A stretch of DNA of 64,000 bases from Candidatus Saccharimonadota bacterium (GTDB lineage: Bacteria; Patescibacteriota; Saccharimonadia; Saccharimonadales; UBA4665): the NCBI GenBank assembly GCA_027327085.1, contig DAHWAT010000001.1:3867-67866 (forward strand), written 5' to 3'. The position numbers were made by a program, and so were the translations under genes. Below the pieces are notes generated by a model. That model was not told the origin of the DNA, ran no database searches, and saw only the letters and a program-made list of their open reading frames with translations. Positions 8,095 to 22,280 of the stretch are shown here, in pieces. How positions within the stretch are numbered: the first letter of the stretch is position 1; each line of letters begins with the position of its first letter.

Positions 8095-8169
8095 TGGTGA
8101 CCTCACGGAGAATCGAACTCCGATTGCCAGGATGAAAACCTGGTGTCCTAGCCGTTAGACGATGAGGCC
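8095..8169 (-). tRNA. tRNA-Glu (anticodon UUC), CCA encoded
   Basis: The reverse complement folds as GGCCTCA/TGAGGTC acceptor, 3-bp GTC/GAC D stem, CCAGG-TTTTCAT-CCTGG anticodon arm and CGGAG-TTCGATT-CTCCG T arm, then A-CCA. Confidence 0.9.
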
Positions 8170-8358: not shown

Positions 8359-9330
8359 TTACTGACGGCTCAAACGTCGACCAATTACAAAACGATACGC
8401 TACTGTACTGATTGCTACAACTGCAGCAAAGATACCAATAGTGCTACCAGGACCTGTGTTAACCAATTGAGTTGGCGCAGCGGGTGGAGTAACAGTTGGA
8501 GGAGTTGTGCTAGTGAAAGACACTTGTTGTTCACAAGTAGCACTGGTTGCTGTTTGATTCTGCCCGTTAACATTAAAGTTAGCTGTGGCAGTAATCGTGT
8601 AAGTACCGTCACTAGTGTATGTATGGCTTTGACCAACTACATTACTGGCTGTTGTTGGGGTAGAATTATCGCCCCAGTTAATTGTAGCGTTAGTAAAGGT
8701 TGCGCCATTTTGAGCAGTAGTGTTAAGACCGCTTACTGTTATAGTCTTGTTGTCGCCCGCAGTAACTGTTAAAGCGTTACAAGTATATACAGGAGCTGCT
8801 GGAGTAGGACAACCTACTTTAGCTTCAAAATTAACATATTCTACACCAGAACCATTAATGCTGCCGATGTTATCACCAGAAGTCATTAGGTTGTCTGAAA
8901 GAGAGCTAATTTTGTTACCATTTACGTCTAATAGTTCGGCTGAGCCAGGAACGTATGAAACAGTTTGAGCACTACTAAGGTCTAGTTCGGTGCTTCCACT
9001 GACGCTATTAGCTACACCGCCACCATAGGTAGCGTTGAATGTTGAAACGTTTTTTACGCTTGAAGTGTTAGGTAAATTAACACTTACAGTAACGTTAGTT
9101 GCAGCAACATAAGCCGTATTATGAAGTTGGATACTATATTCAAGCTCATCGCAAGCGTTAGCGCTAGCAGGATTAGCGTAGTTAACATTTTGTGTAAGAT
9201 TTTTGATTTGATATATGTTACCGCCAGCTATATCGGCTGGGCTGTCAGCAAAAACCGCTGGACTTAGAGCTGCAAATGACAAGCCGATAAAGGCTACGCC
9301 GGTTACAAGAGCTTTATTTAAAGCTTTCAT
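8359..9330 (-). CDS. secreted cell-surface protein with PKD-like domain and LVNTGPG sorting signal
   Basis: Signal peptide ending AVFA-DS. The INWGDNS...HTYTSDGTYTITATANF segment resembles a PKD domain. The C-terminus is LVNTGPG + hydrophobic helix + GRRLSRQ. Confidence 0.65.
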   Translation of the reverse strand: MKALNKALVTGVAFIGLSFAALSPAVFADSPADIAGGNIYQIKNLTQNVNYANPASANACDELEYSIQLHNTAYVAATNVTVSVNLPNTSSVKNVSTFNATYGGGVANSVSGSTELDLSSAQTVSYVPGSAELLDVNGNKISSLSDNLMTSGDNIGSINGSGVEYVNFEAKVGCPTPAAPVYTCNALTVTAGDNKTITVSGLNTTAQNGATFTNATINWGDNSTPTTASNVVGQSHTYTSDGTYTITATANFNVNGQNQTATSATCEQQVSFTSTTPPTVTPPAAPTQLVNTGPGSTIGIFAAVVAISTVAYRFVIGRRLSRQ

Positions 9331-9576: not shown

Positions 9577-10686
9577 CTACATAAATGTAGGAGAGGTTGT
9601 CCAGGTCAGCGGCAAAGTGCCGGAGGCTGAATAGCCTGAACCGTCACTGGCCGTGGCCTGAACAAACGAGGTGTTGTTCGGAGGCATATCCGAACCGGTT
9701 GCAAAGGTACTGTCACACCACATGCTCGGCGAACCGGGCTGAGGCGAAGTGACAAGACCGCCGTCCAGGAAAGCTCCGTACTGATCGGAACTAAACTGAA
9801 CGGACTTAACGTCCTGGTATGCGCCACCGATGGTGACACAAACCATTAGGTTGGTCTCATTGGGCCAGTACTCCTGTGGCTGGGTGCCACCGGAGATATT
9901 AAAAGTGTAGCAATTGGGATAGATACCCCCTTCGCTTTCACTCTGGCAAGTTGGAGCTGTGGTTGAACCACTGCTCTGACTCTGGCCTTGCTGCTGCCCC
10001 TGGTTCACAGTCACCTGAGTCGTCTGGTTAACGTTGATCACGGGTGAACCCTGACCGGACGTTGTCCCAGACTGGCTTGTGGTGTTGGAGTTAGTCTGGC
10101 AGACTGCCTGACCATTGACAACAACCACTGTCCCGGCACAGGAAGCTGGCTTTGGGGCCTGCTTACGCCTGCGCTCAACGACATGACGGCGGACAGGAAT
10201 CCACAGCCAGTAGCAGAAAGTACCCGTTTCTGGGTTGGTACAATTCTGCTTGCCCGCTGCGTTACTGCAGACAGCAATCCTCTTATAGCCCTTGCGAGCA
10301 TGGAGGGAGATCCTGTTCTTCGCGTACCTTAGCGGCAATACTGCGAACACCGGCGTTCCCGCTGGTAGTTCACGGTGACCTACGCTGAAGATGGTGCCGG
10401 GATGGCAACCATAATCAACGGGGTCAGCCGGCCTCCTGAGATCGACTGCGATGACTCGCTGAGCGACCCAAGAGTAATAACTTCCGTCCATCCTGTGAAA
10501 GCCATTCCTGGCCATCAACGCTTCCGTCTGCTTGAGGACGCCCATCTTGGCCAACTGGCTTACCCACACTCGTGGATTGTTGGTTCCAATACCACACTGC
10601 CCGTAGGCGAATGCGGGGGAGGCGGCCACGCTCATGAAAAGCGCAACGACAAACGGCACGAACAACAGATAGAACTTCTTGAACAA
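9577..10686 (-). CDS. secreted Cys-rich protein of unknown function (compositionally foreign)
   Basis: TTG start preceded by AAAGAGGTGAT. Signal peptide ...SPAFA-YGQCG, about 14 Cys, and a central Q/S/T-rich linker. Sampled lines are 55-65 % GC. Many overlapping stop-free frames fit a high-GC insert. Confidence 0.6.
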   Translation of the reverse strand: MFKKFYLLFVPFVVALFMSVAASPAFAYGQCGIGTNNPRVWVSQLAKMGVLKQTEALMARNGFHRMDGSYYSWVAQRVIAVDLRRPADPVDYGCHPGTIFSVGHRELPAGTPVFAVLPLRYAKNRISLHARKGYKRIAVCSNAAGKQNCTNPETGTFCYWLWIPVRRHVVERRRKQAPKPASCAGTVVVVNGQAVCQTNSNTTSQSGTTSGQGSPVINVNQTTQVTVNQGQQQGQSQSSGSTTAPTCQSESEGGIYPNCYTFNISGGTQPQEYWPNETNLMVCVTIGGAYQDVKSVQFSSDQYGAFLDGGLVTSPQPGSPSMWCDSTFATGSDMPPNNTSFVQATASDGSGYSASGTLPLTWTTSPTFM

Positions 10687-11203: not shown

Positions 11204-13735
11204 TTATCTCAAAAAGATAGTATGCTCGCTATCTGAGTCTAAGTTATCATTTACGGGCGATGCCTGATTATTAGTCGATTTACTACGTCGTCGGCGTAGT
11301 CTTTTTCGTTTTTTAGGCTTGATTGCCACGTCAGCAGCTTTAACGGCTGCTACCCCCATTTTGATAGAAGGCGGCTTAAGAGCTGGGTTTAGGTCTTTTG
11401 GCTCTGTAGTGCGACTAGGCTCTGGCTTTACTTCGTTAGCTGGAATTGAAGTGTTATTTTTTAAGTTGTACCGATCAGATACAAAACTTTCAACAGAAGC
11501 TTTATCTAGTGCATACTGCTGTCTTGAATTAGCAATTATGGCTTCACTATTATCGGTTTCATAGGCTGGTAAATCTAGAGTGATAGCTGAAAATGCCTGG
11601 GTTTTTTCACCATAGATGGTCATTGAAATGACTAAATGACGGTTGTGCATGTGTACAAGGTCATACTCTTCGAATTTAGGTTCGAAGTAACGTAACATAC
11701 TCCTAGCATCATCAGCACCCATCCTGAAGGCTATAATTGAGCCGACGTTGCCAAATACGGCATCCTTAACTTCAAGAGGCATTTGTGCAATGTATTGGTT
11801 GGCGACCGTCAGATTAAGGCCGTACTTTCTGGCTTCAGACAGGATAGTGGCAAAGCTATCTGTTGCAAAGTTTTGGAATTCGTCAACGTACAGATAGAAC
11901 GGCGTACGCTCTTGACTAAGTATATCTGCTCTACTCATAGCCGCTAATTGCATCTTGGTAACCAACAGAGCGCCAAGTAAAGCGGCATTGTCTTCGCCAA
12001 CAAGACCACGGCTAAGATTAACAATTAGTATCTTGCGCTCATCCATTATTTGACGGATATTAAAGCTGCTTTTCGGTTGACCGATAATATTTCTGACAAG
12101 TGGATTAGCCGTAAAGGCACCGACTTTGTTTAGTACCGGCGCAACGGCTTCAGCGGCAAATTTATCATTCCAGGATTCAAATTCGACTATCCAGAAGTTA
12201 CGGACTACCGGATCTGATACATTTTCTAAGACTTTTTTCCTAAAACTCTTATCTGTTAGTATTCTGGTGATATCTAGCATAGTTGACTCAGGATACTCTA
12301 GTAGCGCTAGCAGACTGTATCTAAGAATATACTCCAGCCTTGGCCCCCAAGAATCGAACATCCTTTTTAGGACCCCTATAAGTTCAGATACAGTATGGGT
12401 TATCAGCTTAGGGTCAGTTACCTCCATAGGATTAAAGGCTATAGGGTGATCAACATCGGCCGGATTAAAGTAGACCACATCTTTAATTCTTTCTGGCGTA
12501 ATCCGCCTTAAAATACCTAGAGCATAATCACCATGTGGATCTATAACAGCGAACCCATAAGGAGAGTAGATGTCTGATATAGTTAATAGCTCTAAAAGAG
12601 CTGACTTACCGACCCCGGTTTGACCTAAAATATATAGGTGTCGACCTCTGTCAGGACGAGGGAGACCGAAGGCGGTATTATGACCCCTGAAATTAGCAGC
12701 CGCTATAGGGCTGATGGTCAAAGGATCAACTTCACCTACAACTGGTAAATTTGCTGGCGGTTCAGCAGTTTGCGATAAGGCCCATAAGATAAAAGGAGTC
12801 TCCACGTTAGTATGGGGTAAGTGATAAAGCGTGGCAACTTCCTCAATATTGAGCACGATAGGCGATCGACTTAAACTCCTTAACAGGTACTCATTTAAGT
12901 ATTCCGGGGTTGAAAAAACTTTGGTTTGCGTGAAACCGTTAAGGTAGGTGGTATTAAACTGTTTATAGCTGGCAACAATTGATTGTAGCCTGAGATTTGC
13001 TTCAGCAGCGGTCTTACTGCCCCTATAGACTATCCGAAGTGTAGCTTCAAAGGCTAGTTTGTGACTCTTTTCCTCAGCCGATGATGCTCTAGATTGCTCA
13101 TATTCAGTTAGGGTCACCCCTTTAGACTGATCTTCTGGGGCTTTCCAGACAGCCGATAATACACCGAGAGCTCCGTTTCGGGAGTTATTACGCAAAGAAT
13201 TAATATATTTTTCGCTTTTTTTATGCCAATTGGCGGCCGCTGGTCTAATAATTAGCTGAATCCAAGCTTCTTCATCTTCGCTAAATTTGGCTAAAGTAGC
13301 CGTAATAGCAGCTAGAGGATCGACTTCAAAACTTTGGAAGGTTTTAATTGGTAACGCTTGGTTAGCAATCAGATTAAGCTCAGTGCTTAGGTTATTAGCG
13401 TAACCAACCTCTGAAGAGTTAGCATAGTCCTCTACTTCAGTTATCTGTACCATAGGGTACTGCGCGTATATCTGTTCTTCAACAAAACCCTTAAGATACT
13501 CGGGTACGGTTACGTAAAAACCAATTCTCCTCTTTAAAACAGCTATTTCAAAACTAACTCTAACGCGTTTTGACGCACCCATAAAACGTTCTGGTGCAAA
13601 GGTTAACAGCCCATGGAGCGAGGCAAACATCTGTTCAGCGGCCAACTCTTTTTTATCGTTGGTTCTAGGTACCTGTAGCAACAAGACGACTGTGTCATCT
13701 TCGGGTCGATCTACGCTATTTTTTTGATTGGACAT
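11204..13735 (-). CDS. VirD4/TraD/TraG-like P-loop ATPase (T4SS coupling-protein-like) with unknown about 350-aa N-terminal region and poly-basic tail
   Basis: Walker A ILGQTGVGKSALLELL, DPHGDY, and Walker B-like LYVDEFQNF. The C-terminal tail is KPKKRKRLRRRRSKS. Confidence 0.6.
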   Translation of the reverse strand: MSNQKNSVDRPEDDTVVLLLQVPRTNDKKELAAEQMFASLHGLLTFAPERFMGASKRVRVSFEIAVLKRRIGFYVTVPEYLKGFVEEQIYAQYPMVQITEVEDYANSSEVGYANNLSTELNLIANQALPIKTFQSFEVDPLAAITATLAKFSEDEEAWIQLIIRPAAANWHKKSEKYINSLRNNSRNGALGVLSAVWKAPEDQSKGVTLTEYEQSRASSAEEKSHKLAFEATLRIVYRGSKTAAEANLRLQSIVASYKQFNTTYLNGFTQTKVFSTPEYLNEYLLRSLSRSPIVLNIEEVATLYHLPHTNVETPFILWALSQTAEPPANLPVVGEVDPLTISPIAAANFRGHNTAFGLPRPDRGRHLYILGQTGVGKSALLELLTISDIYSPYGFAVIDPHGDYALGILRRITPERIKDVVYFNPADVDHPIAFNPMEVTDPKLITHTVSELIGVLKRMFDSWGPRLEYILRYSLLALLEYPESTMLDITRILTDKSFRKKVLENVSDPVVRNFWIVEFESWNDKFAAEAVAPVLNKVGAFTANPLVRNIIGQPKSSFNIRQIMDERKILIVNLSRGLVGEDNAALLGALLVTKMQLAAMSRADILSQERTPFYLYVDEFQNFATDSFATILSEARKYGLNLTVANQYIAQMPLEVKDAVFGNVGSIIAFRMGADDARSMLRYFEPKFEEYDLVHMHNRHLVISMTIYGEKTQAFSAITLDLPAYETDNSEAIIANSRQQYALDKASVESFVSDRYNLKNNTSIPANEVKPEPSRTTEPKDLNPALKPPSIKMGVAAVKAADVAIKPKKRKRLRRRRSKSTNNQASPVNDNLDSDSEHTIFLR

Positions 13736-13850
13736 TACTAATATAATTCTACTTTATCTTTTTAAACATGAGCTTTATCTAGCCATATTATAACAATAAA
13801 GTTTTATAGTCAATATTAATCAATCTTTTTTAAATCTTGTCAATTAAAGT

Positions 13851-15594: not shown

Positions 15595-16902
15595 GTGAAG
15601 GTTGCGATTGCAGGCTTTGGCATAGAAGGACAGTCCTCGCTTGAATACTTTTCAGCTTTAGGTCATGAAGTAGTCGTGTTAGACGAAAAGCCAGATTTAG
15701 TGTTGCCAAATAAGGTTAAGTCAGTTTTAGGTAGTCAAGCCTTCCGTAATTTGTCTTCATATGATCTGATTGTTAGAAGCGCCGGTTTACCACCTAATAA
15801 GCTGACTGAGTTTAATGACAATATTGATCACTTAATCACTACTCAACTAAATGAGTTTTTAAAAGTATGCCCTAGCCAAAAAATAATTGGGGTAACTGGT
15901 ACTAAAGGCAAAGGGACAACTGCTACTCTGATTGCCAAGATGTTGGCGGCCAGCAACTGTCAGGTTGTCCTAGGCGGCAACATTGGCGTAGCTATGCTAA
16001 GTCTATTATCGTCAATCAGTCCTGAGACATTTGTGGTGTTAGAGCTTTCGAGTTTCCAGTTAAGCGATCTCAAGGTTAGTTCACCTAAAACGGCAGTTTG
16101 TTTAATGGTGGTGCCTGAACATTTGGATTGGCACGGTTCGTTGTCAAATTATATTGCGGCTAAAACTAATCTTTTTGCATACCAACCCAAAGACAGTTTG
16201 GCGATATTTTATCCTAAAAGTGAGTTTTCAAGGCAGATTGCAGCCGCTAGTCAGGGACAGAAAATCCCCTTTTTTGAACCTCCTGGAGCCGAAGTTAAAA
16301 ACAACCAGATTGTTATTGACGATAAAACTATCTGTTCCGTAAGTGATCTAAAACTGATTGGCGAGCATAGCTGGCAAAACATTTGCGCGGCAGTGACAGC
16401 CGTCTGGCAACATGTTCAGGACGTTCAGGCTGCTCACCAAGTGCTGACTTCTTTTAGTGGCCTAAAGCACCGCTTAGAATTTGTTAGAGAAGTAGACCAC
16501 GTTAAGTACTACAACGATTCTTTTGCCTCTCAGCTAAAGGCGAGCGAGGCAGCCATTTTGGCCATCAAACAGCCTAAAGTACTAATCATCGGCGGTTTTG
16601 ACCGGATGTTGGAGCTTGAATCGTTTTGTCAGTTAGTCAAAAGGGAGGCTACTTCCATTCGTAAACTTATGTTAATTGGGGCAAGTGCTGAAAGATTGGC
16701 TAAGGCTTTGGCAAAAGTTGGTTATACTGATTTTTATATGGGTAATCACTTAAAGACCATGGCTGATATCGTTAATCAAGCTAAGGCTTTAGCTAAAGCA
16801 AATGATGCCGTAGTGTTATCGCCTGGCTTTCCCAGTTTTGATATGTTTAAAAACTTTGAAGATAGAGGTAATCAGTTTAAGGACTGTGTTAAGGCCTTAT
16901 GA
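15595..16902 (+). CDS. murD: UDP-N-acetylmuramoyl-L-alanine--glutamate ligase (MurD family; possibly MurD2-type)
   Basis: GTG start. GVTGTKGKGTTATLIAKML P-loop, LELSSFQL, GLKHRLEF, YNDSFAS, IIGGFDR, and C-terminal SPGFPSFDMFKNFEDRGNQF. The protein is collinear with MurD. Confidence 0.85.
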   Translation: MKVAIAGFGIEGQSSLEYFSALGHEVVVLDEKPDLVLPNKVKSVLGSQAFRNLSSYDLIVRSAGLPPNKLTEFNDNIDHLITTQLNEFLKVCPSQKIIGVTGTKGKGTTATLIAKMLAASNCQVVLGGNIGVAMLSLLSSISPETFVVLELSSFQLSDLKVSSPKTAVCLMVVPEHLDWHGSLSNYIAAKTNLFAYQPKDSLAIFYPKSEFSRQIAAASQGQKIPFFEPPGAEVKNNQIVIDDKTICSVSDLKLIGEHSWQNICAAVTAVWQHVQDVQAAHQVLTSFSGLKHRLEFVREVDHVKYYNDSFASQLKASEAAILAIKQPKVLIIGGFDRMLELESFCQLVKREATSIRKLMLIGASAERLAKALAKVGYTDFYMGNHLKTMADIVNQAKALAKANDAVVLSPGFPSFDMFKNFEDRGNQFKDCVKAL

Positions 16903-18185
16903 GTAAATACGTAAGCTTTGTCTTTAAAAACTACTATTTTGATCCGAATACCGGTTTATTAGATCTGGTTTATGGTTATGACGATGTACTTGAGTTTCAC
17001 GAAACCTACAAATTTAATTTTAAATTCCAAGCTTACGATGAAGCTATTTTGGATAGAGCCATCCAGCTGCTTTTTTTCCTGGCTGGTGTATCGTATTACA
17101 AACTTTACTTAAGCCCTAATATTAAAGTTGATAAGGGTAAAATTGACCAACAATTCGGTCTTTTTTTGAATAAAACGTACCAAAAGGGCCTAGGAGAATT
17201 TTTTTATGTTAACTCGCTTGATCCTAACAGCCAAATTAGCTTCCCAGTTAACAGCCCAGATTTTCAAGCTTTAGAGTTAAGTAATTTATCTGGTCAGTTA
17301 ATCGGTCTGGGTGGCGGTAAGGATAGTTTACTATCGGTAGAAGTTTTAAGAGATCTACAGAAAGTAGCAACCTGGAGTCTAAACCACCAAACTAAGCTTC
17401 AACCACTAGTCGATCAGGTTGGGCTAAATCATTTTTGGGTAGAAAGAACCTGGGATCCACTGATTATGCAGCTTAACCAGCAAGATGCCCTTAATGGGCA
17501 CATACCCATTTCGGCCATTTTTGCAGCTACTGGCGTTATTGTAGCTATCTTGAGCGGTTATAGGGAGGTTATAGTCTCTAATGAAAGTTCGGCTAGTGAA
17601 CCGAGTCTACTGTATGAAGGGGTGGCAATTAATCATCAATACTCTAAGTCCTTAGAATTTGAAAAGGATTTTCAAACTATCTTAACTGTTTTATTTGGTG
17701 ATAGTGTAGCCTACTATTCACTGCTTCGGCCTTTCAGTGAATTGAGAATTGCCGAATTTTTTGCCAGTTTTTTTGATAAATACAGCCCCTATTTCAGTAG
17801 TTGCAACCGAGCTTTCACCTTGCATCAAGATCATTTATTCTGGTGTGGCCAATGTCCAAAATGTGCTTTTGTGTTTTTGATACTAACACCATTTATTGAA
17901 CGCCTAAAACTGGAAAAACTATGGCATGGACACAATTTACTACTAGATGATTCGGTTAAGCCTACCTACCTAAAACTGCTTGGCATAGAGGGCGATAAGC
18001 CCCTGGATTGCGTTGGCGAAGTTAAAGAAGCTCGAACGGCCATGCGTTTAGCTACAAACATTTACCCCGAGCTGAAACAGTATCATTTCGATATACCCCC
18101 AGATTATGATTACAAAGCATGGCACGAACACGCTATGCCTCAAGCTATGTACGATCTATTAAAAAGTCGTTTTGGGAATTTATGA
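16899..18185 (+). CDS. PP-loop (SGGKDS-like) ATP-pyrophosphatase-fold protein, candidate MurL-type UDP-MurNAc-L-Ala-L-Glu epimerase
   Basis: ATGA start/stop overlap with murD. GLGGGKDSLLS PP-loop motif and a downstream Cys cluster CGQCPKC. The functional call rests on synteny only. Confidence 0.4.
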   Translation: MSKYVSFVFKNYYFDPNTGLLDLVYGYDDVLEFHETYKFNFKFQAYDEAILDRAIQLLFFLAGVSYYKLYLSPNIKVDKGKIDQQFGLFLNKTYQKGLGEFFYVNSLDPNSQISFPVNSPDFQALELSNLSGQLIGLGGGKDSLLSVEVLRDLQKVATWSLNHQTKLQPLVDQVGLNHFWVERTWDPLIMQLNQQDALNGHIPISAIFAATGVIVAILSGYREVIVSNESSASEPSLLYEGVAINHQYSKSLEFEKDFQTILTVLFGDSVAYYSLLRPFSELRIAEFFASFFDKYSPYFSSCNRAFTLHQDHLFWCGQCPKCAFVFLILTPFIERLKLEKLWHGHNLLLDDSVKPTYLKLLGIEGDKPLDCVGEVKEARTAMRLATNIYPELKQYHFDIPPDYDYKAWHEHAMPQAMYDLLKSRFGNL

Positions 18186-18992
18186 TTCAAGCTGTTTTTG
18201 GCAGGCACGTATAACATTTTCAAACAGAGCGCAAACCGTTAAAGGGCCGACTCCTCCCTTTAGGGGAGTAATTGTTAAATCGTCTCTTGTGTCATAAACA
18301 CTAACATCTACATCGCCAAATATCTTAGCTTCTTCACTGGCTACACCGGCATCAACAACAATAGCCCCCGGCTTTAACATATCTGAGGTTATGAGACCTT
18401 TGGTCCCTGTAGCAGTAATAATTAAATCGGCCTGTAGGCTTAGGCTTTTTAAATTTTGAGTGCTTTTATCGGCTACCGTTGGTTCTATGCCTGAACTATT
18501 AAGTATTTTGAGCAAAGGGGCGCCGACGAGTTTACCTTGTCCCACAAGTAGAATATTTTTATTGTTGAGCTCAATATTGTAACCACCAAGTAGCCAAAGT
18601 ATCGCCATAGGCGTAGCTGATTCAAACTCTGATTTTAAACTTAAGCCATCAACGTCCTTAGATGGGTTAATGAGGTTAATTATTTGATCGGTTTCAAGCG
18701 GGTTAGCGAGAGGCAATTGTATAATAATGGCTTGTACTTTACTAGACTGATTTAGTTGTTTAAGGGTTTCGTTTACTTGTTCTTGTTGAATTTTATAGAC
18801 GTCTACATCGACTAGTATGTCCTGACCATAAGCCTGTTTAAGACGAACATAAGTTTCTATAGCAGGATGATCAATCGTAACTATTATTGCTAATTTTGGG
18901 TATATATTAAAAGCTTGTCTTAAAGATCTTACCTGTTTAGCTTGACGTTCTTTAATATACCCGGCAAGTTCCAGGCCATTTAATAATTTCAT
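18180..18992 (-). CDS. folD: bifunctional methylenetetrahydrofolate dehydrogenase/cyclohydrolase
   Basis: MKLLNGLELAGYIKERQ N-terminus, VGQGKLVGAPL Rossmann motif and GGVGPLTVCALFENV. Confidence 0.88.
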   Translation of the reverse strand: MKLLNGLELAGYIKERQAKQVRSLRQAFNIYPKLAIIVTIDHPAIETYVRLKQAYGQDILVDVDVYKIQQEQVNETLKQLNQSSKVQAIIIQLPLANPLETDQIINLINPSKDVDGLSLKSEFESATPMAILWLLGGYNIELNNKNILLVGQGKLVGAPLLKILNSSGIEPTVADKSTQNLKSLSLQADLIITATGTKGLITSDMLKPGAIVVDAGVASEEAKIFGDVDVSVYDTRDDLTITPLKGGVGPLTVCALFENVIRACQKQLES

Positions 18993-19067
18993 TTTGTTAA
19001 AATTATATACTAGGTAGTCTTATCTTGCCAAAACAGGCCTATTTTGATACTGTTTTTTGGTAGTTAT

Positions 19068-19144
19068 GGGCCAGTAGCTCAGCTGGTTAGAGCACCTGCC
19101 TCTTAAGCAGGGTGTCGAGGGTTCAAGTCCCTCCTGGCCCTCCA
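19068..19144 (+). tRNA. tRNA-Lys (anticodon CUU), CCA encoded
   Basis: GGGCCAG/CTGGCCC acceptor, GCTC..GAGC D arm, CCTGC-CTCTTAA-GCAGG anticodon arm and GAGGG-TTCAAGT-CCCTC T arm, then T-CCA. Confidence 0.92.
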
Positions 19145-19153
19145 ATAAATATA

Positions 19154-19182
19154 TTGACTAACTTAGTCCGTTTTGCTATTAT
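19154..19182 (+). promoter_or_regulatory. sigma70-like promoter of phd/vapC (TTGACT-N17-TATTAT), probably leaderless mRNA
   Basis: TTGACT at 19154-19159 and TATTAT at 19177-19182. The ATG at 19189 is only 6 nt after the -10 box, and there is no SD sequence. Confidence 0.5.
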
Positions 19183-19188
19183 TAACTT

Positions 19189-19425
19189 ATGTCAGATGTA
19201 ATAAACGTTCACGACCTCAAGACAAATTATTCTAAGTATCTAGACAAGGTTGCTAGTGGCCAGGAAATACTACTTGGCAAACACGGCAAGATTGTTGCTA
19301 AGATTGTTCCCTTGGCTCAAGCTCAACAACCACGAGTACCTGGTGCTCTTAAGGGTAAAATTTGGGCAAGTGATGACTTCGACGCTCCAATGATTGGTCT
19401 CTGGGATACAGTAAAGGCCAAGTAG
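19189..19425 (+). CDS. Phd/YefM-type antitoxin (VapB partner)
   Basis: 78 aa. The N-terminus INVHDLKTNYSKYLDKVASGQEILLGKHGKIVAKIVPL is typical of prevent-host-death antitoxins. A PIN toxin follows 1 nt later. Confidence 0.8.
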   Translation: MSDVINVHDLKTNYSKYLDKVASGQEILLGKHGKIVAKIVPLAQAQQPRVPGALKGKIWASDDFDAPMIGLWDTVKAK

Positions 19426-19426
19426 A

Positions 19427-19825
19427 GTGGTTATTCTTTTAGATACCAACGCTTTTATATGGTGGGTGTCTGATGATAAACGTTTAGGCACAAGAGCACG
19501 AGGAGTTATAGCAAACCCTTCAAATAAAGTCTATGTATCAAATCTAAGCATATTTGAATGTAGCATTAAGGTTAGGCTGGGTAAATTAGAAATAGAGTTT
19601 AGTGATGTTGATAAAGAAATTTCTGAAGGCAGGCTTTTAGAGCTAAGATACGACACGTTGGCTGCAAGACAATTTGTGAAGCAGAAAAATATGCCTCAAG
19701 CAGATCCATTCGACTTTGCTATTACTGCTCTGGCGATTTCTAGGCACATGACACTCATAACAAGCGATGGCAATATCCTTAACTCAGGATTAGATGGGCT
19801 TAATATCATAGATGCACAAACTTGA
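19427..19825 (+). CDS. vapC: PIN-domain toxin VapC
   Basis: GTG start. ILLDTNAFIWW (first acidic PIN residue) and ...ITSDGNIL near the C-terminus; 132 aa. Confidence 0.8.
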   Translation: MVILLDTNAFIWWVSDDKRLGTRARGVIANPSNKVYVSNLSIFECSIKVRLGKLEIEFSDVDKEISEGRLLELRYDTLAARQFVKQKNMPQADPFDFAITALAISRHMTLITSDGNILNSGLDGLNIIDAQT

Positions 19826-19843
19826 TCCGAAGTTCTTTATTTC

Positions 19844-19873
19844 AGTTGCGATAGCGTGCACGGTGGCCCTCCA
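19844..19873 (+). repeat. cassette-end repeat R1 (ends in the last 10 nt of tRNA-Lys)
   Basis: AGTTGCGATAGCGTGCACGGTGGCCCTCCA. TGGCCCTCCA is identical to tRNA-Lys 19135-19144. Confidence 0.8.
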
Positions 19874-19928
19874 TAACGCTTATGTTTAAACTCTGTTTCA
19901 AGGAGTTTTTTATTGTTAAGATGTACTT

Positions 19929-20459
19929 ATGAAAACAGTCTTTCTTGACCGAGATGGCACACTAATAGTTGACCCCGCTGATGAGCGTGTAGATAGTATT
20001 GAAAAAATAGAATTATTCCCGGATAGCATAGAAGCACTTAGATATTTAGCTGACAATGACTTTAACGTAGTTATTATCACTAACCAAGCAGGTATTGCCG
20101 AAGGACGAATTAGCGAAGAAGACTTTTGGAAAATACACTCTGTAGTATTAGATAAATTCTCAGAAAGTGGAATTCATATACTTAAAACGTATATGAATAA
20201 TGAAGCGCCTGGAGCAATAAGTGATTTGCGTAAACCCGCACCGGGTATGTTATTACAAGCTGCTAAAGATTTTAATTTAAACCTATCTGAAATATATATG
20301 GTTGGCGATAGTCAATCTGACATACTAGCAGGGATAAATGCGGGTTGTAAGGGCAGTATTTTAGTTAAGACAGCTCCAAATCACGACGTTATCTCGCCGG
20401 ACGCAATATACACAGCTCGTGATTTATTAGAAGCTGTTGTGTTTGTTGTTGAAAACTGA
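19929..20459 (+). CDS. HAD-IIIA phosphatase, GmhB/histidinol-phosphatase-like
   Basis: VFLDRDGTL (DxD nucleophile), ITNQAGI, RKPAPGM and VGDSQSDILAG motifs. Confidence 0.8.
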   Translation: MKTVFLDRDGTLIVDPADERVDSIEKIELFPDSIEALRYLADNDFNVVIITNQAGIAEGRISEEDFWKIHSVVLDKFSESGIHILKTYMNNEAPGAISDLRKPAPGMLLQAAKDFNLNLSEIYMVGDSQSDILAGINAGCKGSILVKTAPNHDVISPDAIYTARDLLEAVVFVVEN

Positions 20460-20464
20460 ATTGT

Positions 20465-20494
20465 AGTTGCGATAGCATCTACGATGGCCCTCCA
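20465..20494 (+). repeat. cassette-end repeat R2
   Basis: AGTTGCGATAGCATCTACGATGGCCCTCCA is 26/30 identical to R1. It has the same 10-nt tRNA-Lys terminus. Confidence 0.8.
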
Positions 20495-20510
20495 AGTATA
20501 AGCAATATAA

Positions 20511-20533
20511 AAAACTTCTTCGGGAGTTTTTTT
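20511..20533 (+). terminator. hairpin with TTCG loop and T-run after R2
   Basis: AAAACTTC-TTCG-GGAGTTTT followed by TTT. A related but weaker hairpin (AAACTC...GAGTTT + T5) sits at 19888-19910 after R1. Confidence 0.5.
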
Positions 20534-20545
20534 AGATTTAGCCAG

Positions 20546-20583
20546 TTGACACGATATACTACAGGTAATATACTCTGTAGTAT
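20546..20583 (+). promoter_or_regulatory. promoter TTGACA-N17-TATACT overlapped by a 9-bp perfect inverted repeat (operator) of the relB/dinJ-like operon
   Basis: TTGACA at 20546-20551 and TATACT at 20569-20574. ATACTACAG (20556-20564) pairs with CTGTAGTAT (20575-20583), and the second arm overlaps the ATG. Confidence 0.6.
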
Positions 20584-20851
20584 GAATACAGTCATAAGCG
20601 TAAGAATCGATAAAGACGTAAAAGCTTCTGCTCAGGAAGTGGCCAATAGCGCCGGGCTCACTCTGAGCACACTAGTTAACGCTTACCTGCGGCAAGTATC
20701 AGCCACTCGTCGTATTGAGCTGTATGCTCCTGAACAAATGACTCCTAAGTTAGAGAAACTCATAGAAGAGGTTGAAGCTGAGCTTAAGGGGGGTAAAGCA
20801 AGCAAAGAGTTTGATAGTGTCGAAGAGTTTCTCGCTGACCTTAAAAAATAG
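20582..20851 (+). CDS. RelB/DinJ-family antitoxin
   Basis: The internal ATG at 20582 gives MNTVISVRIDKDVKASAQEVANSAGLTLSTLVNAYLRQV, a ribbon-helix-helix DinJ/RelB pattern. The track start at 20546 coincides with the -35 box. Confidence 0.75.
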   Translation: MNTVISVRIDKDVKASAQEVANSAGLTLSTLVNAYLRQVSATRRIELYAPEQMTPKLEKLIEEVEAELKGGKASKEFDSVEEFLADLKK

Positions 20852-20855
20852 AGCT

Positions 20856-21116
20856 ATGACTATTCGCTATTTGCCCAAGTTCAAAAAGCAGTATAAAAAA
20901 CTACCTCATAAACTACAGCTGCAATTTGATGAGCGAGTACGATTATTTGCTTTAGATCCCACACTACCAATGCTTAAGGTTCATCCGCTTAAAGGCAAAT
21001 ATAAAGGTTATTGGAGCATGAGTGTAAGTGGGGATATTCGGGCACTATATATAATGGATGGGGATACGATAGTTATTTTTGCACTTATAGGTTCGCATAG
21101 CCAATTGTACGGTTGA
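20856..21116 (+). CDS. RelE/YafQ-type mRNA-interferase toxin
   Basis: The ATG at 20856 gives MTIRYLPKFKKQYKKLP...LKVHPLKGKYKGYWSMSVSGDIRALY...IFALIGSHSQLY. The track start at 20772 overlaps the antitoxin. Confidence 0.75.
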   Translation: MTIRYLPKFKKQYKKLPHKLQLQFDERVRLFALDPTLPMLKVHPLKGKYKGYWSMSVSGDIRALYIMDGDTIVIFALIGSHSQLYG

Positions 21117-21136
21117 GCTTAATCAAAGTTATGATA

Positions 21137-21175
21137 GCTAGAAATCACTACGATAGAACCGTCCAATAATGTCAC
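21137..21175 (+). repeat. degenerate third copy (R3) of the cassette-end repeat
   Basis: AGTTATGATAGCTAGAAATCACTACGATAGAACCGTCCA aligns with R2 through AGTT..GATAGC, CTACGAT and TCCA blocks, with an 8-nt insertion. Confidence 0.45.
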
Positions 21176-21302
21176 GCCTCTTTAATATTTCATCCAACAT
21201 GGGCATTGTCATTAGGCCTATGCAGTCTCCTAACTACTGCACGCCCTGTTTTCCTACTTATAACTCCCCTGTTATGGAGAGTTTGTTTGATATACTGTTG
21301 CT

Positions 21303-21644
21303 ATGAAAGTTGTCAAAAGTATAAGTGTGTCCGAGTTGTCTGAAATGGCCGAGCAAATGTATGGCAGCTTGGTGAAAGCTGATATCGATATCGTCAAAAA
21401 TATTTTTATCATTGATATGGGCATGCATGCAGATGGTGAGGCATACCTTCTTGAAAACGGTTCCGATCAAAAAGATATTTGGGGTATAAACTTGCATCCT
21501 TCTGAGTACGGAACTGACGATTTCATAGAGTTTGAGTCTATGATTAATATACGGCCCAGGCAAGGCAATACTTCGACAAATATCCTAGACCCGAAGGTTA
21601 GGCAACAAGTTATTGCAATCGTGGAAGAGGTTGTCCATGATTGA
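21303..21644 (+). CDS. small conserved hypothetical protein (I recall similar CPR proteins as DUF5674-type; unverified)
   Basis: 113 aa. Preferred over the antisense ORF 21258-21563 because of its coding-like composition and its 8-nt overlap with the next same-strand ORF. Confidence 0.45.
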   Translation: MKVVKSISVSELSEMAEQMYGSLVKADIDIVKNIFIIDMGMHADGEAYLLENGSDQKDIWGINLHPSEYGTDDFIEFESMINIRPRQGNTSTNILDPKVRQQVIAIVEEVVHD

Positions 21645-21957
21645 GCATAGATTTGACGCTAAGAAATGGGCTGAGATGAGTCTGTTCGATCAGATGGGTA
21701 ATATTGGTTTAGAGGTCAAACGTGCCCTAAACGCCAAACGTCAAGGCAAGACTAAACAATCTCAAGCTGCCTTTTATCGCGGGCTAGACTTAATCGACGA
21801 AACTGCACGACTTTGGGCAATTAAACAACAAGCTGGCTTAAAGGAACTCTTGTACGCACGAGAGCTATTTGCAGAGTCAATAACAACCAGCAAAATTGAT
21901 CCAACTTTAGAAACCTATTTTATGCAGTACGCTATTGCCGCTAGGCTTAAGCGATAA
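21637..21957 (+). CDS. hypothetical helical protein, translationally coupled to the previous ORF
   Basis: The ATG at 21637 overlaps the upstream stop (ATGATTGA). The protein is 106 aa with no recognisable motif. Confidence 0.4.
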   Translation: MIEHRFDAKKWAEMSLFDQMGNIGLEVKRALNAKRQGKTKQSQAAFYRGLDLIDETARLWAIKQQAGLKELLYARELFAESITTSKIDPTLETYFMQYAIAARLKR

Positions 21958-22280
21958 CTTCACTATAGGTAGTAACGTCTATGTTGATCTTCATTGGTTG
22001 CAGGATAAGAATTAGCCTTTAAGTTAGTGGTTGAGGTAAAGGTAGCGGCTGCAATTTACATATTGTTTGCGTTTATTGGCACGGCTTTTGCCGGATTGCT
22101 TAATATGCCTCTATCTTTTATTTATCAGTCTAAACAAATAGCTTTTTAGCTATATAGGAACATCAGAAGAAGGTTTTTGTTTTCAGTACGTAAAAGCCTG
22201 CTCTTAAGTTAAACTAGCACCATACTAGGCATAATTAAGGCATATAAATAGGGGGCTATGTAGCTCTAATTTAGACTCGC

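Follow-up and report, generated by a model that had tools for sequence, protein, structure and literature searches.

Downstream of a tRNA-Lys gene in the 64-kb stretch of DNA analysed here (the window) lie short gene units, the first two of which are closed by a repeat, R, whose last nucleotides copy the 3′ end of the tRNA. This organization probably represents a tRNA-anchored, integron-like array of site-specific cassettes, with the 3′ end of tRNA-Lys serving as docking site and a recombinase acting in trans. The tRNA-Lys gene here plays the role of attB or attI. An earlier note on this DNA had offered, as separate readings, serial integration into the tRNA 3′ end and an integron-like array. 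The two merge into one, namely integrase-less cassettes at a tRNA 3′ end, each of which would retain a conserved element arm and a short core.

Organization of the array in the window

The tRNA-Lys gene was located by both ARAGORN and Rfam and ends, as the earlier note had it, in TGGCCCTCCA. This decamer is found exactly three times in the window, at the tRNA end and as the last 10 nt, CCA included, of R1 and R2, while the ends of the other 7 tRNAs in the window are not repeated downstream. R1 and R2 are exact matches to AGTTGCGATAGC-N4-ACGRTGGCCCTCCA and are identical at 26 of 30 positions. They are the only matches to this pattern in the 64 kb on either strand, and 100 shuffles gave none. 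The pattern, identity, coordinates and unit-closing position first described for the two repeats all hold.

Pfam agrees with the initial gene calls of Phd-VapC, HAD and RelB-RelE units. Both toxin-antitoxin units were said to be leaderless and to carry their own promoter, and the corresponding elements could indeed be placed upstream of Phd and RelB. The HAD unit had been described as having no obvious promoter; its extended −10 has the position and layout typical of the cassette family. The hairpin and T-run reported after R1 and R2 were also confirmed. RelB/RelE is the commonest cassette family, being present in 7 arrays, and the head of the Phd-VapC cassette is found in two other loci (L085 and L018) after an R and not after the tRNA. 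Exact look-ups of the window HAD and RelE recovered only the same arrangement, and that of the window SDR protein returned no record.

A degenerate third repeat had been placed at 21137-21175. A degenerate copy is retained, weakly, but its position is not, since the better fit is 21127-21165. This R3 is the best match in the window besides R1 and R2, with a score of 31 against a background maximum of 28, and its alignment takes three gaps (9 inserted bases); that it is a decayed R copy is plausible but weak. Beyond it lies a DUF5674 gene pair (clusters 20 and 31), which is probably an old, fixed fourth cassette lacking a recognisable R. Elsewhere the same pair occurs within R-bounded cassettes; in L024, for instance, an intact R begins 18 nt past the end of the gene. 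A candidate fourth R after the pair in the window (21956-21996) was not significant. The array in the window thus consists of the Phd-VapC, HAD and RelB-RelE cassettes and, probably, the fixed DUF5674 pair.

Table 1. Features of the tRNA-Lys array (positions in the window).
Feature	Positions	Strand	Content or basis
tRNA-Lys(CUU) gene, CCA encoded	19068-19144	+	ARAGORN; Rfam 72 bits; array anchor
Docking core TGGCCCTCCA	19135-19144	+	3′ end of tRNA-Lys; cassette junction directly after final A
Cassette 1	19145-19873	+	promoter, leaderless Phd, PIN/VapC, R1
TTGACT, cassette 1	19154-19159	+
TATTAT, cassette 1	19177-19182	+
Phd	19189-19425	+	Pfam
PIN/VapC	19427-19825	+	Pfam
R1	19844-19873		exact pattern match; profile match 19835-19873
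Cassette 2	19874-20494	+	H1 head, terminator, extended −10, leaderless HAD, R2
H1 head, TAACGC + TTATGTTTAAA	19874-19890	+
Terminator hairpin, cassette 2	19888-19908	+	followed by T-run
Extended −10, TGtTAAGAT	19914-19922	+	ends 6 nt 5′ of HAD ATG
HAD phosphatase	19929-20459	+	Pfam
R2	20465-20494		exact pattern match; profile match 20456-20494
Cassette 3	20495-21165	+	H2-like head AGTATAAGCAATAT, terminator, promoter, RelB, YafQ/RelE, putative decayed R3
UUCG-loop terminator hairpin, cassette 3	20509-20532	+	followed by T-run
TTGACA, cassette 3 promoter	20546-20551	+
TATACT, cassette 3 promoter	20569-20574	+	leaderless RelB
RelB	20582-20851	+	Pfam
YafQ/RelE	20856-21116	+	Pfam
DUF5674 gene and partner	21303-21957	+	Pfam; gene 21303-21644, overlapping 106-aa partner 21637-21957

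Recurrence of the array in other genomes

Searching with a 28-nt R pattern gave 99 stretches of genome contigs and at least 120 of metagenome contigs, compared with about 0.3 expected by chance. Nearly all the genome contigs are labelled Saccharibacteria; the metagenome contigs carry no taxon label. An R remnant was found in Ktedonospora. Among viral contigs the strict pattern had 0 matches and a looser one a single unrelated high-GC match, and a search of phage and plasmid collections for R plus head yielded chance matches only. The layout anchored at tRNA-Lys recurs in more than 200 other assemblies, the anchor being tRNA-Lys(CTT) or tRNA-Lys(TTT), and tRNA-Lys is the first tRNA upstream in 52 of 53 metagenome loci. 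The prospect raised at the outset of a 30-mer scattered genome-wide without any link to tRNA-Lys is therefore not borne out. A generic intergenic repeat of the REP, BIME or MITE kind was likewise rejected, the window copies R1, R2 and the decayed R3 lying only at tRNA-Lys and those elsewhere being tied to it.

The conserved site is about 38 nt long and extends some 9 nt further 5′ than the 30-mer originally delimited, with the consensus taATTtcAG-TTGC-N-AY-AGC-N4-ACGR-TGG-CCCTCCA. The shared end, first taken as 10 nt, reduces across genomes to a functionally shared core of 7 nt, CCCTCCA: this is common to tRNA and R in 163 of 174 tRNA-R pairs and the full 10-mer in 109, although the locus-finding pattern fixes the R core, so that the invariance of the core and some of the polarity statistics are partly ascertainment effects. 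R profile matches are co-oriented in 253 of 255 cases in genomes and 278 of 278 in metagenomes (531/533 together), and R lies downstream rather than upstream of tRNA-Lys in ratios of 114:2 and 83:3. The R profile score drops with rank from the tRNA, from 36.8 to 29.9 and 26.8 bits (Spearman −0.28, p = 0.003).

Junctions are spaced by a median of 773 bp in genomes and 838 bp in metagenomes, and one-gene cassettes number 87 and two-gene cassettes 44 out of 162. The 248 cassette ORFs, 78% in array orientation and 22% reversed, fall into 205 protein clusters; the cargo includes HAD, NUDIX, methyltransferases, toxin-antitoxin pairs, Fic and MFS, among others. Many cassettes carry a terminator at the head, and the usual opening is this hairpin followed by an extended −10 promoter giving a leaderless mRNA. 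A TANNNT element 4-10 nt (mode 6) 5′ of the start codon is present in 69% of cassettes compared with 38% of other ORFs, and a TG-extended −10 in 48% compared with 18%.

Structure of the R site

In an alifold analysis of 124 aligned R sites, the consensus folds with only −0.9 kcal/mol and no complementary covariation; R1 is less stable than its shuffles (z = +1.8) and R2 alone folds well. A hairpin or attC-like structure in R was rejected, none being conserved across sites, as was pairing of the variable bases of R with the following head, where by inspection the commonest variants merely coincide without covariation. The flanks of the core lack the inverted-repeat symmetry usual for tyrosine-recombinase core sites (same alignment, and by eye), and an Rfam scan of the window together with a permissive scan of 19000-21400 returned tRNAs only.

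These data bear on the remaining reading of the earlier note, in which the tRNA-end mimic acts at the RNA level as a 3′-processing, CCA-related or stability determinant of cassette transcripts. R does end in the acceptor 3′ strand, discriminator and CCA of the tRNA; it usually lies a few nt past a stop codon and is followed by a terminator, and 32 of 87 upstream co-oriented ORFs terminate inside it. However, R has no conserved fold, no Rfam match and no 5′ acceptor partner, it keeps the orientation of the tRNA over reversed genes (such as LMWPc in L005, L008 and L035), and it segregates between strains as a DNA junction. The lack of a conserved fold and the orientation kept over reversed genes argue against an RNA role, which we regard as highly improbable.

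Cassette turnover between strains

The window and strain L005 have identical FolD and tRNA and are 99.87% identical as far as position 19145, beyond which they diverge. In place of cassettes 1 and 2, L005 carries an LMWPc cassette and a HicB-HicA/95-aa cassette. Cassette 3 (RelBE) is common to both and 96% identical, and the R before it differs at 13 of 40 positions. Contigs L006 and L117 also break from the window at the end of tRNA-Lys. In a second comparison, L008 has one additional cassette exactly between the tRNA CCA and the LMWPc cassette, which in L035 abuts the tRNA directly. Gene order is thus polymorphic at the level of single cassettes among strains with the same folD and tRNA; an invariant order was the other outcome that the earlier note had weighed against its proposal.

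Forty-one junction pairs were homologous on one side, and both sides were homologous in only 1. R showed 2 mismatches when the upstream side was 96-97% identical, compared with 13 when only the downstream side was shared. Between L020 and L040, whose core genes are about 80% identical, the cassette end is 100% identical over 112 nt. R moves together with its upstream gene. Variant bases at −6 (L005) and at −8 and −12 (L008) remain with the cassette, and variants of the tRNA-Lys end at −10 to −7 are not reproduced in R. The breakpoints lie exactly 3′ of the tRNA CCA, and the crossover maps to the last 5-7 nt (CCCTCCA).

Cassettes could in principle be exchanged without any dedicated recombinase, RecA swapping them via R/tRNA-end blocks of about 40 nt after natural transformation and R being kept for exchangeability. 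Saccharibacteria are reported to be naturally competent, no recombinase was found near about 220 arrays, and identity between the window and L005 drops from 99.9% in the flanks to 96% in the RelBE cassette, as if a block had been imported by homologous recombination; the difference between these two strains could therefore be a homologous replacement of the whole proximal array. We nevertheless consider this mechanism unlikely. Breakpoints fall at the 3′ edge of R, not within it, in three independent comparisons, R is co-inherited only with the upstream gene, and the available homology, 38 nt on one side but 7-10 nt in the tRNA, would be marginal for RecA. It would also leave unexplained how unrelated genes gained R and why the core equals the tRNA end.

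Search for a recombinase

In agreement with the first inspection, no tyrosine recombinase was detected in the window (motif regex; Pfam on ORFs of at least 150 aa), nor did phmmer with E. coli XerD or Pfam searches of 145 flanking ORFs find any in the 99 genome and 120 metagenome loci. With IS608 TnpA as phmmer query, no Y1 transposase was detected either, in the window and across about 220 array loci. Pfam searches for recombinases covered the window ORFs and 295 locus ORFs and gave nothing linked to the arrays. The 150 cassette protein representatives match 117 Pfam families, and no recombinase is present among the families matched by at least 2 representatives (best 25 of the 117). The window contains neither a Xer gene nor dif-like sites. 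The searches, which also used the N-terminal domain of a large serine recombinase as query, turned up only two or three large serine recombinases, in a tRNA-Gln-associated element near an R (L073, L183 and L049).

Since no recombinase is linked to the arrays, the enzyme must act in trans. We infer the cassette mechanism from array anatomy only; a tyrosine recombinase is our guess, given a shared core as long as a typical overlap region, and a host Xer-type enzyme is a candidate.

The same searches bear on the possibility that the units are remnants of integrase-bearing islands or prophages accreted in tandem at the tRNA-Lys 3′ end, with integrases lost and R left as attR scars. Such elements are recognised by just this location, a tRNA 3′ end whose terminus recurs in direct repeats, and tycheposons, which form tandem arrays with partial tRNA copies between units (bioRxiv 10.1101/2020.12.28.424599), provide a precedent; large serine recombinase elements also occur near R in the three loci above. 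Those elements, however, belong with tRNA-Gln and not tRNA-Lys. More than 300 cassettes with a median of about 0.8 kb are free of integrase fragments, the arm and the head/terminator/promoter layout are intact and stereotyped, unlike the products of random decay, and the repeat matches the tRNA over 7-10 nt only. This origin is very unlikely in our view.

Discussion

In the cassette mechanism that we favour, R would be the recombination site of the cassette, made of a conserved arm and the 7-bp crossover core CCCTCCA, which is identical to the last nucleotides of tRNA-Lys (acceptor end, discriminator and CCA). A circular cassette would recombine core-to-core with either the tRNA end or the R site of a cassette already in the array, landing exactly after the CCA and leaving the tRNA intact. 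New insertions would shift older cassettes distally, where their R sites would decay, and cassettes would be released when two directly oriented cores recombine. No cassette circle and no empty-site molecule turned up in the analysis.

Integrons are the textbook dedicated system for gene-cassette capture. Sedentary chromosomal integrons share with R arrays long co-oriented series of short cassettes of one or two genes, a fixed docking site with older cassettes distal, an end site that moves with the upstream gene and that ORFs often enter, and very diverse cargo rich in toxin-antitoxin pairs and small enzymes. R arrays differ in having no adjacent intI (in the window and in the 99 genome and 120 metagenome loci), in docking at a tRNA 3′ terminus instead of attI, and in their hosts, Saccharibacteria (CPR/Patescibacteria). 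Most R cassettes carry their own terminator and promoter, unlike integron cassettes, which depend on Pc. R is asymmetric, about 38 nt long, and is neither an imperfect palindrome nor equipped with GTTRRRY boxes, which GTTGCNA does not fit; the observation that the repeats lack classical attC cores thus stands.

Prochlorococcus tycheposons and CIME/ICE accretion resemble R arrays in tRNA 3′-end insertion that regenerates the tRNA, in the displacement of earlier insertions by newer ones with variability peaking beside the tRNA, and in tRNA-terminus repeats between units. Yet those elements measure several kb and bring their own integrase, whereas R cassettes measure about 0.8 kb and no integrase or remnant was found in them. 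Their repeats comprise about 20-40 nt of tRNA; R matches the tRNA over 7-10 nt only and has a 28-nt arm, unrelated to the tRNA, that is conserved across species.

Xer-exploiting elements (IMEX; Acinetobacter pdif modules) are, like R cassettes, small recombinase-less cargo modules, often toxin-antitoxin, which in their case are moved by a host enzyme. Cassette heads are heterogeneous, but 20-24% of junctions read N6 + TTATGYTTAAA after the CCA, with TTATG at +7 or +8 in 60 of 254 heads in genomes and 50 of 251 in metagenomes. The motif is similar to the dif XerD arm (E. coli, TTATGTTAAAT; B. subtilis, TTATGTAAACT; PMC3025954), lies at the canonical 6-nt spacing and matches the E. coli arm at 8-9 of 11 positions, although most heads lack it. 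Speculatively, this spacing would put XerC-type cleavage exactly after the CCA. The left arm of R, ATGGCCCTCCA, in contrast, is unlike any XerC arm, and R sites lie at a tRNA gene, not at dif, as direct repeats, whereas pdif sites alternate in orientation. Xer involvement in R arrays is speculation.

The broader proposal, which we regard as about as likely as not, is that Saccharibacteria possess a hitherto unrecognised class of gene-capture platform parallel to integrons in function without descending from them. It would use a 7-bp dock in tRNA-Lys, hundreds of self-expressed mini-cassettes with the 38-nt site in common and an array-unlinked recombinase, either a host chromosome-maintenance enzyme or an undiscovered one. 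It would give these reduced epibiont genomes one of their main routes for gaining and exchanging genes and would occasionally reach other phyla, as the Ktedonospora remnant may indicate. If true, an independent solution with another site, dock and enzyme linkage would mean that cassette platforms evolved more than once, and that they work in the ultra-small and host-dependent CPR bacteria, for which little is known of how genes are exchanged. The arrays would explain where strain-specific accessory genes of Saccharibacteria sit, including toxin-antitoxin pairs, HAD/NUDIX hydrolases, methyltransferases and transporters. The 38-nt motif offers a handle for PCR mining of cassette metagenomes, as with attC, and a tRNA-safe natural landing pad combined with a compact terminator/leaderless-promoter unit could serve to engineer the few cultivable Saccharibacteria. 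Finding the recombinase is the clear problem that the arrays pose.

A literature search, which included the R motif itself, found no earlier description, and the tRNA-Lys-anchored cassette layout looks new. Egan and Landy are said to have described in 1978, at E. coli tyrT, 178-bp repeats downstream of tRNA-Tyr that each contain the 3′ terminal 19 nt of the tRNA. There too a tRNA gene is followed by direct repeats of its own 3′ end, but in that case one unit has been duplicated in tandem within one species, and neither varied cargo nor exchange of cassettes is involved.

Repeats closing gene cassettes downstream of tRNA-Lys

The tRNA-Lys(CUU) gene of the window is followed by gene cassettes closed by a repeat, named R here (see the table of features). 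When both strands of the 64 kb were searched with up to 3 mismatches, the motif AGTTGCGATAGC-N4-ACGRTGGCCCTCCA was found in exactly two copies, R1 and R2, and it had 0 matches in 100 shuffles. The sequence TGGCCCTCCA is present three times in the window, at the end of tRNA-Lys, in R1 and in R2, and none of the 7 other window tRNAs has a downstream repeat of its own terminus. These searches confirmed the coordinates of the two repeats ending in the tRNA-Lys terminus that the earlier note had described, and Pfam agrees with the identities it had given to the units (Phd-VapC, HAD and RelB-RelE). The repeat is real but longer than the 30 nt first proposed, the conserved site extending over about 38 nt: taATTtcAG-TTGC-N-AY-AGC-N4-ACG-R-TGGCCCTCCA. 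A degenerate third copy, R3, had also been claimed, and is better placed at the position given in the table. Its alignment to the R consensus needs three gaps (9 inserted bases) and its score of 31, the best in the window besides R1 and R2, barely exceeds the background maximum of 28. R3 is thus a plausible rather than a proven decayed copy of R.

Features of the tRNA-Lys locus in the window
Feature	Position	Strand	Remark
folD	18180-18992	minus	upstream of tRNA-Lys
tRNA-Lys(CUU)	19068-19144		CCA encoded
Phd	19189-19425		Pfam
PIN/VapC	19427-19825		Pfam
R1	19844-19873
HAD cassette head	19874-19890		TAACGC + TTATGTTTAAA
HAD cassette hairpin, then T-run	19888-19908
HAD cassette extended -10	19914-19922		TGtTAAGAT
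HAD cassette ATG	19929
HAD phosphatase	19929-20459		Pfam
R2	20465-20494
RelB	20582-20851		Pfam
YafQ/RelE	20856-21116		Pfam
R3, plausible decayed copy	21127-21165		11 nt past RelE stop
DUF5674 + overlapping 106-aa ORF	21303-21957		Pfam

Distribution of R and its link to tRNA-Lys

The motif was relaxed to TTGCNAYAGCNNNNACGNTGGCYCTCCA to take in a sister-strain variant. It then matched 99 stretches in one-genome-per-species contigs, where about 0.3 are expected by chance, and at least 120 stretches in metagenome contigs, with no match in viral contigs. Nearly all genome matches are labelled Candidatus Saccharibacteria or Saccharimonadales. A 40-column R profile, built from 124 distinct copies, gave 255 matches in genome loci and 278 in metagenome loci; matches on the opposite strand numbered 2 and 0, respectively. 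R lies downstream and not upstream of the tRNA-Lys gene, by 114 to 2 in genome loci and 83 to 3 in metagenome loci, and the nearest upstream tRNA on the same strand is almost always tRNA-Lys(CTT) or tRNA-Lys(TTT) (52 of the 53 metagenome loci whose slices contain a tRNA). A single locus holds up to 9 sites, and successive junctions, the boundaries between a CCA and the next cassette start or head, are separated by a median of 773 bp in genome loci and 838 bp in metagenome loci. In 27 loci folD precedes tRNA-Lys, which makes the array an insertion zone beside a conserved flank. With its copies tied to tRNA-Lys in genome and metagenome loci, R is clearly not a generic scattered repeat; a 30-mer spread genome-wide without linkage to this tRNA was the outcome that the earlier note had named as contradicting it.

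The possibility that R acts as an RNA 3'-processing or stability signal, also raised previously, is rejected. R has no Rfam match, its 124 copies reveal neither a consensus structure nor complementary covariation, and it stays in the orientation of the array even next to a reversed cassette gene. Shuffled versions of R1 fold better than R1 itself, and of R1 and R2 only R2 folds well.

The metagenome contig L205 (5752-14815) has an array of at least 8 cassettes spanning 9 kb. Its anchor is a tRNA-Lys gene reduced to a 3' fragment, which runs from about 6 nt past tRNA-Trp (5752) to 5791. The left arms of its R copies are strongly diverged (TAGATATAAC...CACGG); the core TGGCCCTCCA + A is invariant. 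In the cultured Chloroflexota isolate Ktedonospora formicarum SOSP1-1 (L080, NZ_BNJF01000002.1, 4469-4758), one full-length R (43.5 bits, 5' flank consensus included) is located in a local GC dip, directly 3' of an 83-aa ORF that by eye resembles a truncated nucleotidyltransferase. This R may be a cassette remnant moved across phyla.

Content and expression signals of the cassettes

Successive junctions delimited 162 cassettes, of which 87 contain one ORF and 44 contain two. Their 248 ORFs fall into 205 sequence clusters, 78% of them being co-directional with the tRNA, and 150 representative proteins match 117 Pfam families. The commonest cassette is RelB-RelE; cargo families include HAD hydrolases, NUDIX, SAM methyltransferases, DUF1801, ROK, MFS, Fic, Phd/PIN, RelB, YoeB and peptidase M23. 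ORFs often end within R (32 of 87 stops, at three in-frame positions). At the other end, the first head base after CCA is A in about 63% of the metagenome set. About a quarter of heads are of the N6-TTATG(C/T)TTAAA type, with TTATG at +7 in 52/254 heads from genomes and, for metagenomes, at +7 or +8 in 50/251; about a tenth begin with AGCATAAGC..., the inverse of the 12-mer of this type, and many of the remaining ones form a hairpin and T-run straight away. Such a terminator would be useful, as insertion right after the tRNA must end the tRNA transcript.

Cassettes contain their own expression signals. A TANNNT hexamer ends 4-10 nt before the start codon in 69% of them, with a sharp mode at 6 nt, versus 38% of other ORFs of the same loci; its TG extension is found in 48% versus 18%, and a Shine-Dalgarno-like motif in 7% versus 15%. 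The HAD cassette had been described as having no obvious promoter, but the signals listed in the table fit the layout of the family exactly, showing that this remark was wrong. Genes outside cassettes often have the leaderless layout as well (38% of 402 ORFs, all fetched loci), with a -10 hexamer whose end lies about 6 nt from the start codon and rarely a Shine-Dalgarno motif; this layout appears to be a general trait of array-bearing genomes.

Comparisons indicating that cassettes move with their R and insert after CCA

Exact look-up of the window FolD gave 8 contigs, 7 of the 8 being listed. Over folD and the tRNA, as far as position 19145, the contig L005 (GCA_021844085.1) matches the window at 99.87% identity; beyond this point it carries other cassettes. 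The first, a reversed LMW phosphatase gene, ends with ...GTAGAAGTAAATTCTACGATGGCCCTCCA; the second, a HicB-HicA/95-aa unit, starts with TAACGCTTATGCTTAAA and ends with TGTTGCAACAGCATGCACGTTGGCTCTCCA, and the match between L005 and the window resumes at the RelBE cassette (96%). Several contigs from metagenomes stop precisely at one of two places, the tRNA end or R3, which is what a branch in the assembly graph would produce. The HicA-like frame after HicB in L005 (1240-1420, minus strand of the locus) seems by eye to be interrupted (49-aa call, stop, further ORF) and may be a decaying toxin gene. Two other loci, L008 and L035, have 100% identical tRNAs and a common LMWPc cassette (97%). This cassette abuts the tRNA in L035 (...GATGGCCCTCCA|AGCATAAGCG...). 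In L008 the two are separated by a 563-bp cassette, complete with an R of its own (...AGTTGCGATAGCTTCGCACATGCCCCTCCA), which is inserted precisely there, immediately after the CCA.

Comparison of all junctions yielded 12 pairs with homology restricted to the upstream side, 28 with homology restricted to the downstream side and 1 with homology on both. Two copies of R mismatch at 2 of 40 positions if they follow sequences that are 96-97% identical, but at 13 of 40 if homology is confined to the downstream side, the case of window R2 versus L005. R thus belongs with the gene in front of it. The earlier note had reported 10 nt identical to the tRNA terminus in R1 and R2, but the full 10-mer is common to tRNA and R in 109 of 174 pairs, and only its last 7 nt, CCCTCCA, hold across them (163/174). 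The cassette retained the core variants that it carried at -6 in L005 and at -8 and -12 in L008. Conversely, where the tRNA-Lys end deviates between -10 and -7 (GGGCCCTCCA in tRNA-Lys(UUU), and also AGCCCCTCCA, TGACCCTCCA and TGTCCCTCCA), the R sites that follow still keep TGGCCCTCCA. Exchange is thus located inside CCCTCCA or at its 3' edge. The main rival explanation is that homologous recombination alone exchanges cassettes, R serving as portable homology. The excess divergence of the RelBE cassette of L005 hints that block replacement also occurs, but homologous recombination alone would explain neither why breakpoints lie at the 3' edge of R nor how unrelated genes came to carry an R.

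Loci L020 and L040, whose core genes are about 80% identical, share 112 nt of cassette end and R at 100%, and L012 and L093 share 517 nt at 97.7%, their downstream neighbours being unrelated; this sharing points to cassette transfer between species. The R profile score drops with rank from the tRNA (36.8, 29.9 and 26.8 bits; Spearman -0.28, p = 0.003). The window fits this polarity, with R1 and R2 intact, R3 apparently decayed and the DUF5674 pair devoid of R; in L024 and further loci, this pair forms a bona fide cassette bounded by R. Separately, strain L001 (14470-15180) contains an extra pair of RelB-like (93 aa) and YafQ-like (88 aa) genes between histidine-kinase and DUF87/TrwB-like ATPase genes. 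The corresponding window site (13780-13850) is without it. As neither edge of the pair has an R, there is a second route by which toxin-antitoxin pairs move here.

Recombinase search and possible mechanism

The homology searches used approximate XerD and TnpA query sequences, and Pfam tallies of cassette and flank proteins covered the 25 most frequent families. No tyrosine recombinase was found in the window, in line with the absence of integrase previously claimed there, nor in the array loci searched (about 0.8 Mb from genomes and 0.6 Mb from metagenomes), which led us to reject decayed integrase-bearing islands; neither small serine recombinase nor Y1 transposase was found in array loci. 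Recombinases close to the arrays were limited to a 583-aa large serine recombinase, associated with a Replic_Relax gene and tRNA-Gln (L073, L183), and a partial one in L049. In these loci (L073 2199-6204, L183, L049 5970-7958), the recombinase, Replic_Relax and HTH genes adjoin tRNA-Gln, a few kb from an R. Between tRNA-Gln and the recombinase gene of L049 there is a PhzF cassette, whose head and R are typical and which follows a bare core TTGTGGCCCTCCA; R cassettes can thus occur away from tRNA-Lys.

We consider it probable that R arrays are cassette platforms. Cassettes would pass transiently through circles in which R abuts the head, and a recombinase acting in trans would carry out strand exchange inside CCCTCCA, with R on one side and either the tRNA end or a second R on the other; recombination between two cores in direct orientation would excise a cassette. 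The conserved 28-nt left part of R, missing from the tRNA partner, would constitute an attP-type arm, and the length of the shared core would suit the overlap region of a tyrosine recombinase. CCA-N6-TTATGYTTAAA resembles the centre and XerD arm of dif (GGTGCGCATAA-TGTATA-TTATGTTAAAT in E. coli, with the end TTATGTAAACT in B. subtilis; PMC3025954), so that XerC-type cleavage would fall exactly at the observed junction. The left arm of R does not resemble XerC arms, and the dif-like motif is missing from three quarters of heads; from this comparison, Xer involvement in cassette movement seems rather unlikely.

Serial integrations at the tRNA end and an integrase-less integron-like array, two readings of the earlier note, merge and hold as mobile cassettes, its overall interpretation being partly supported. 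The arrays are not canonical integrons, being without attC-type palindrome, GTTRRRY box and adjacent intI. Sedentary chromosomal integrons are functionally closest, although the tRNA-Lys array matches only their array feature and no other defining one. Tycheposons, a case of tRNA-island accretion (bioRxiv 10.1101/2020.12.28.424599), have tRNA docking logic and proximal-to-distal ageing in common with R arrays, whereas R units are about ten times smaller and lack an integrase. IMEX and pdif modules share with R cassettes the idea of recombinase-less modules. No description of R arrays was found in the full-text literature on Saccharibacteria/Patescibacteria or on the motif itself, subscription journals being outside this coverage. 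We place R arrays among the site-specific gene-cassette arrays, as a variant, with a real chance that identification of the enzyme will show them to be a class of their own.

Other genes of the window

An 843-aa DUF8128/DUF87/TrwB-like ATPase (11204-13735, minus strand) is encoded near tRNA-Glu (8095-8169, minus strand). Two accompanying ORFs of 369 aa (9577-10686) and 323 aa (8359-9330), both on the minus strand, have no confident Pfam family, the latter showing a weak PKD match. A 509-aa fusion of an XRE-type HTH with an EPSP-synthase/MurA-like domain (44950-46479, minus strand) is kept in several Saccharibacteria loci, including L023 and L083 (cluster 54). Just upstream of folD, the plus strand encodes a MurD-like ligase and a MurL-type epimerase (15595-18185; Pfam MurL_N, MurL_epimerase_C). 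The 435-aa MurD-like ligase (cluster 2) is present in 16 fetched loci and FolD in 27, while the MurL cluster is present in only 3.
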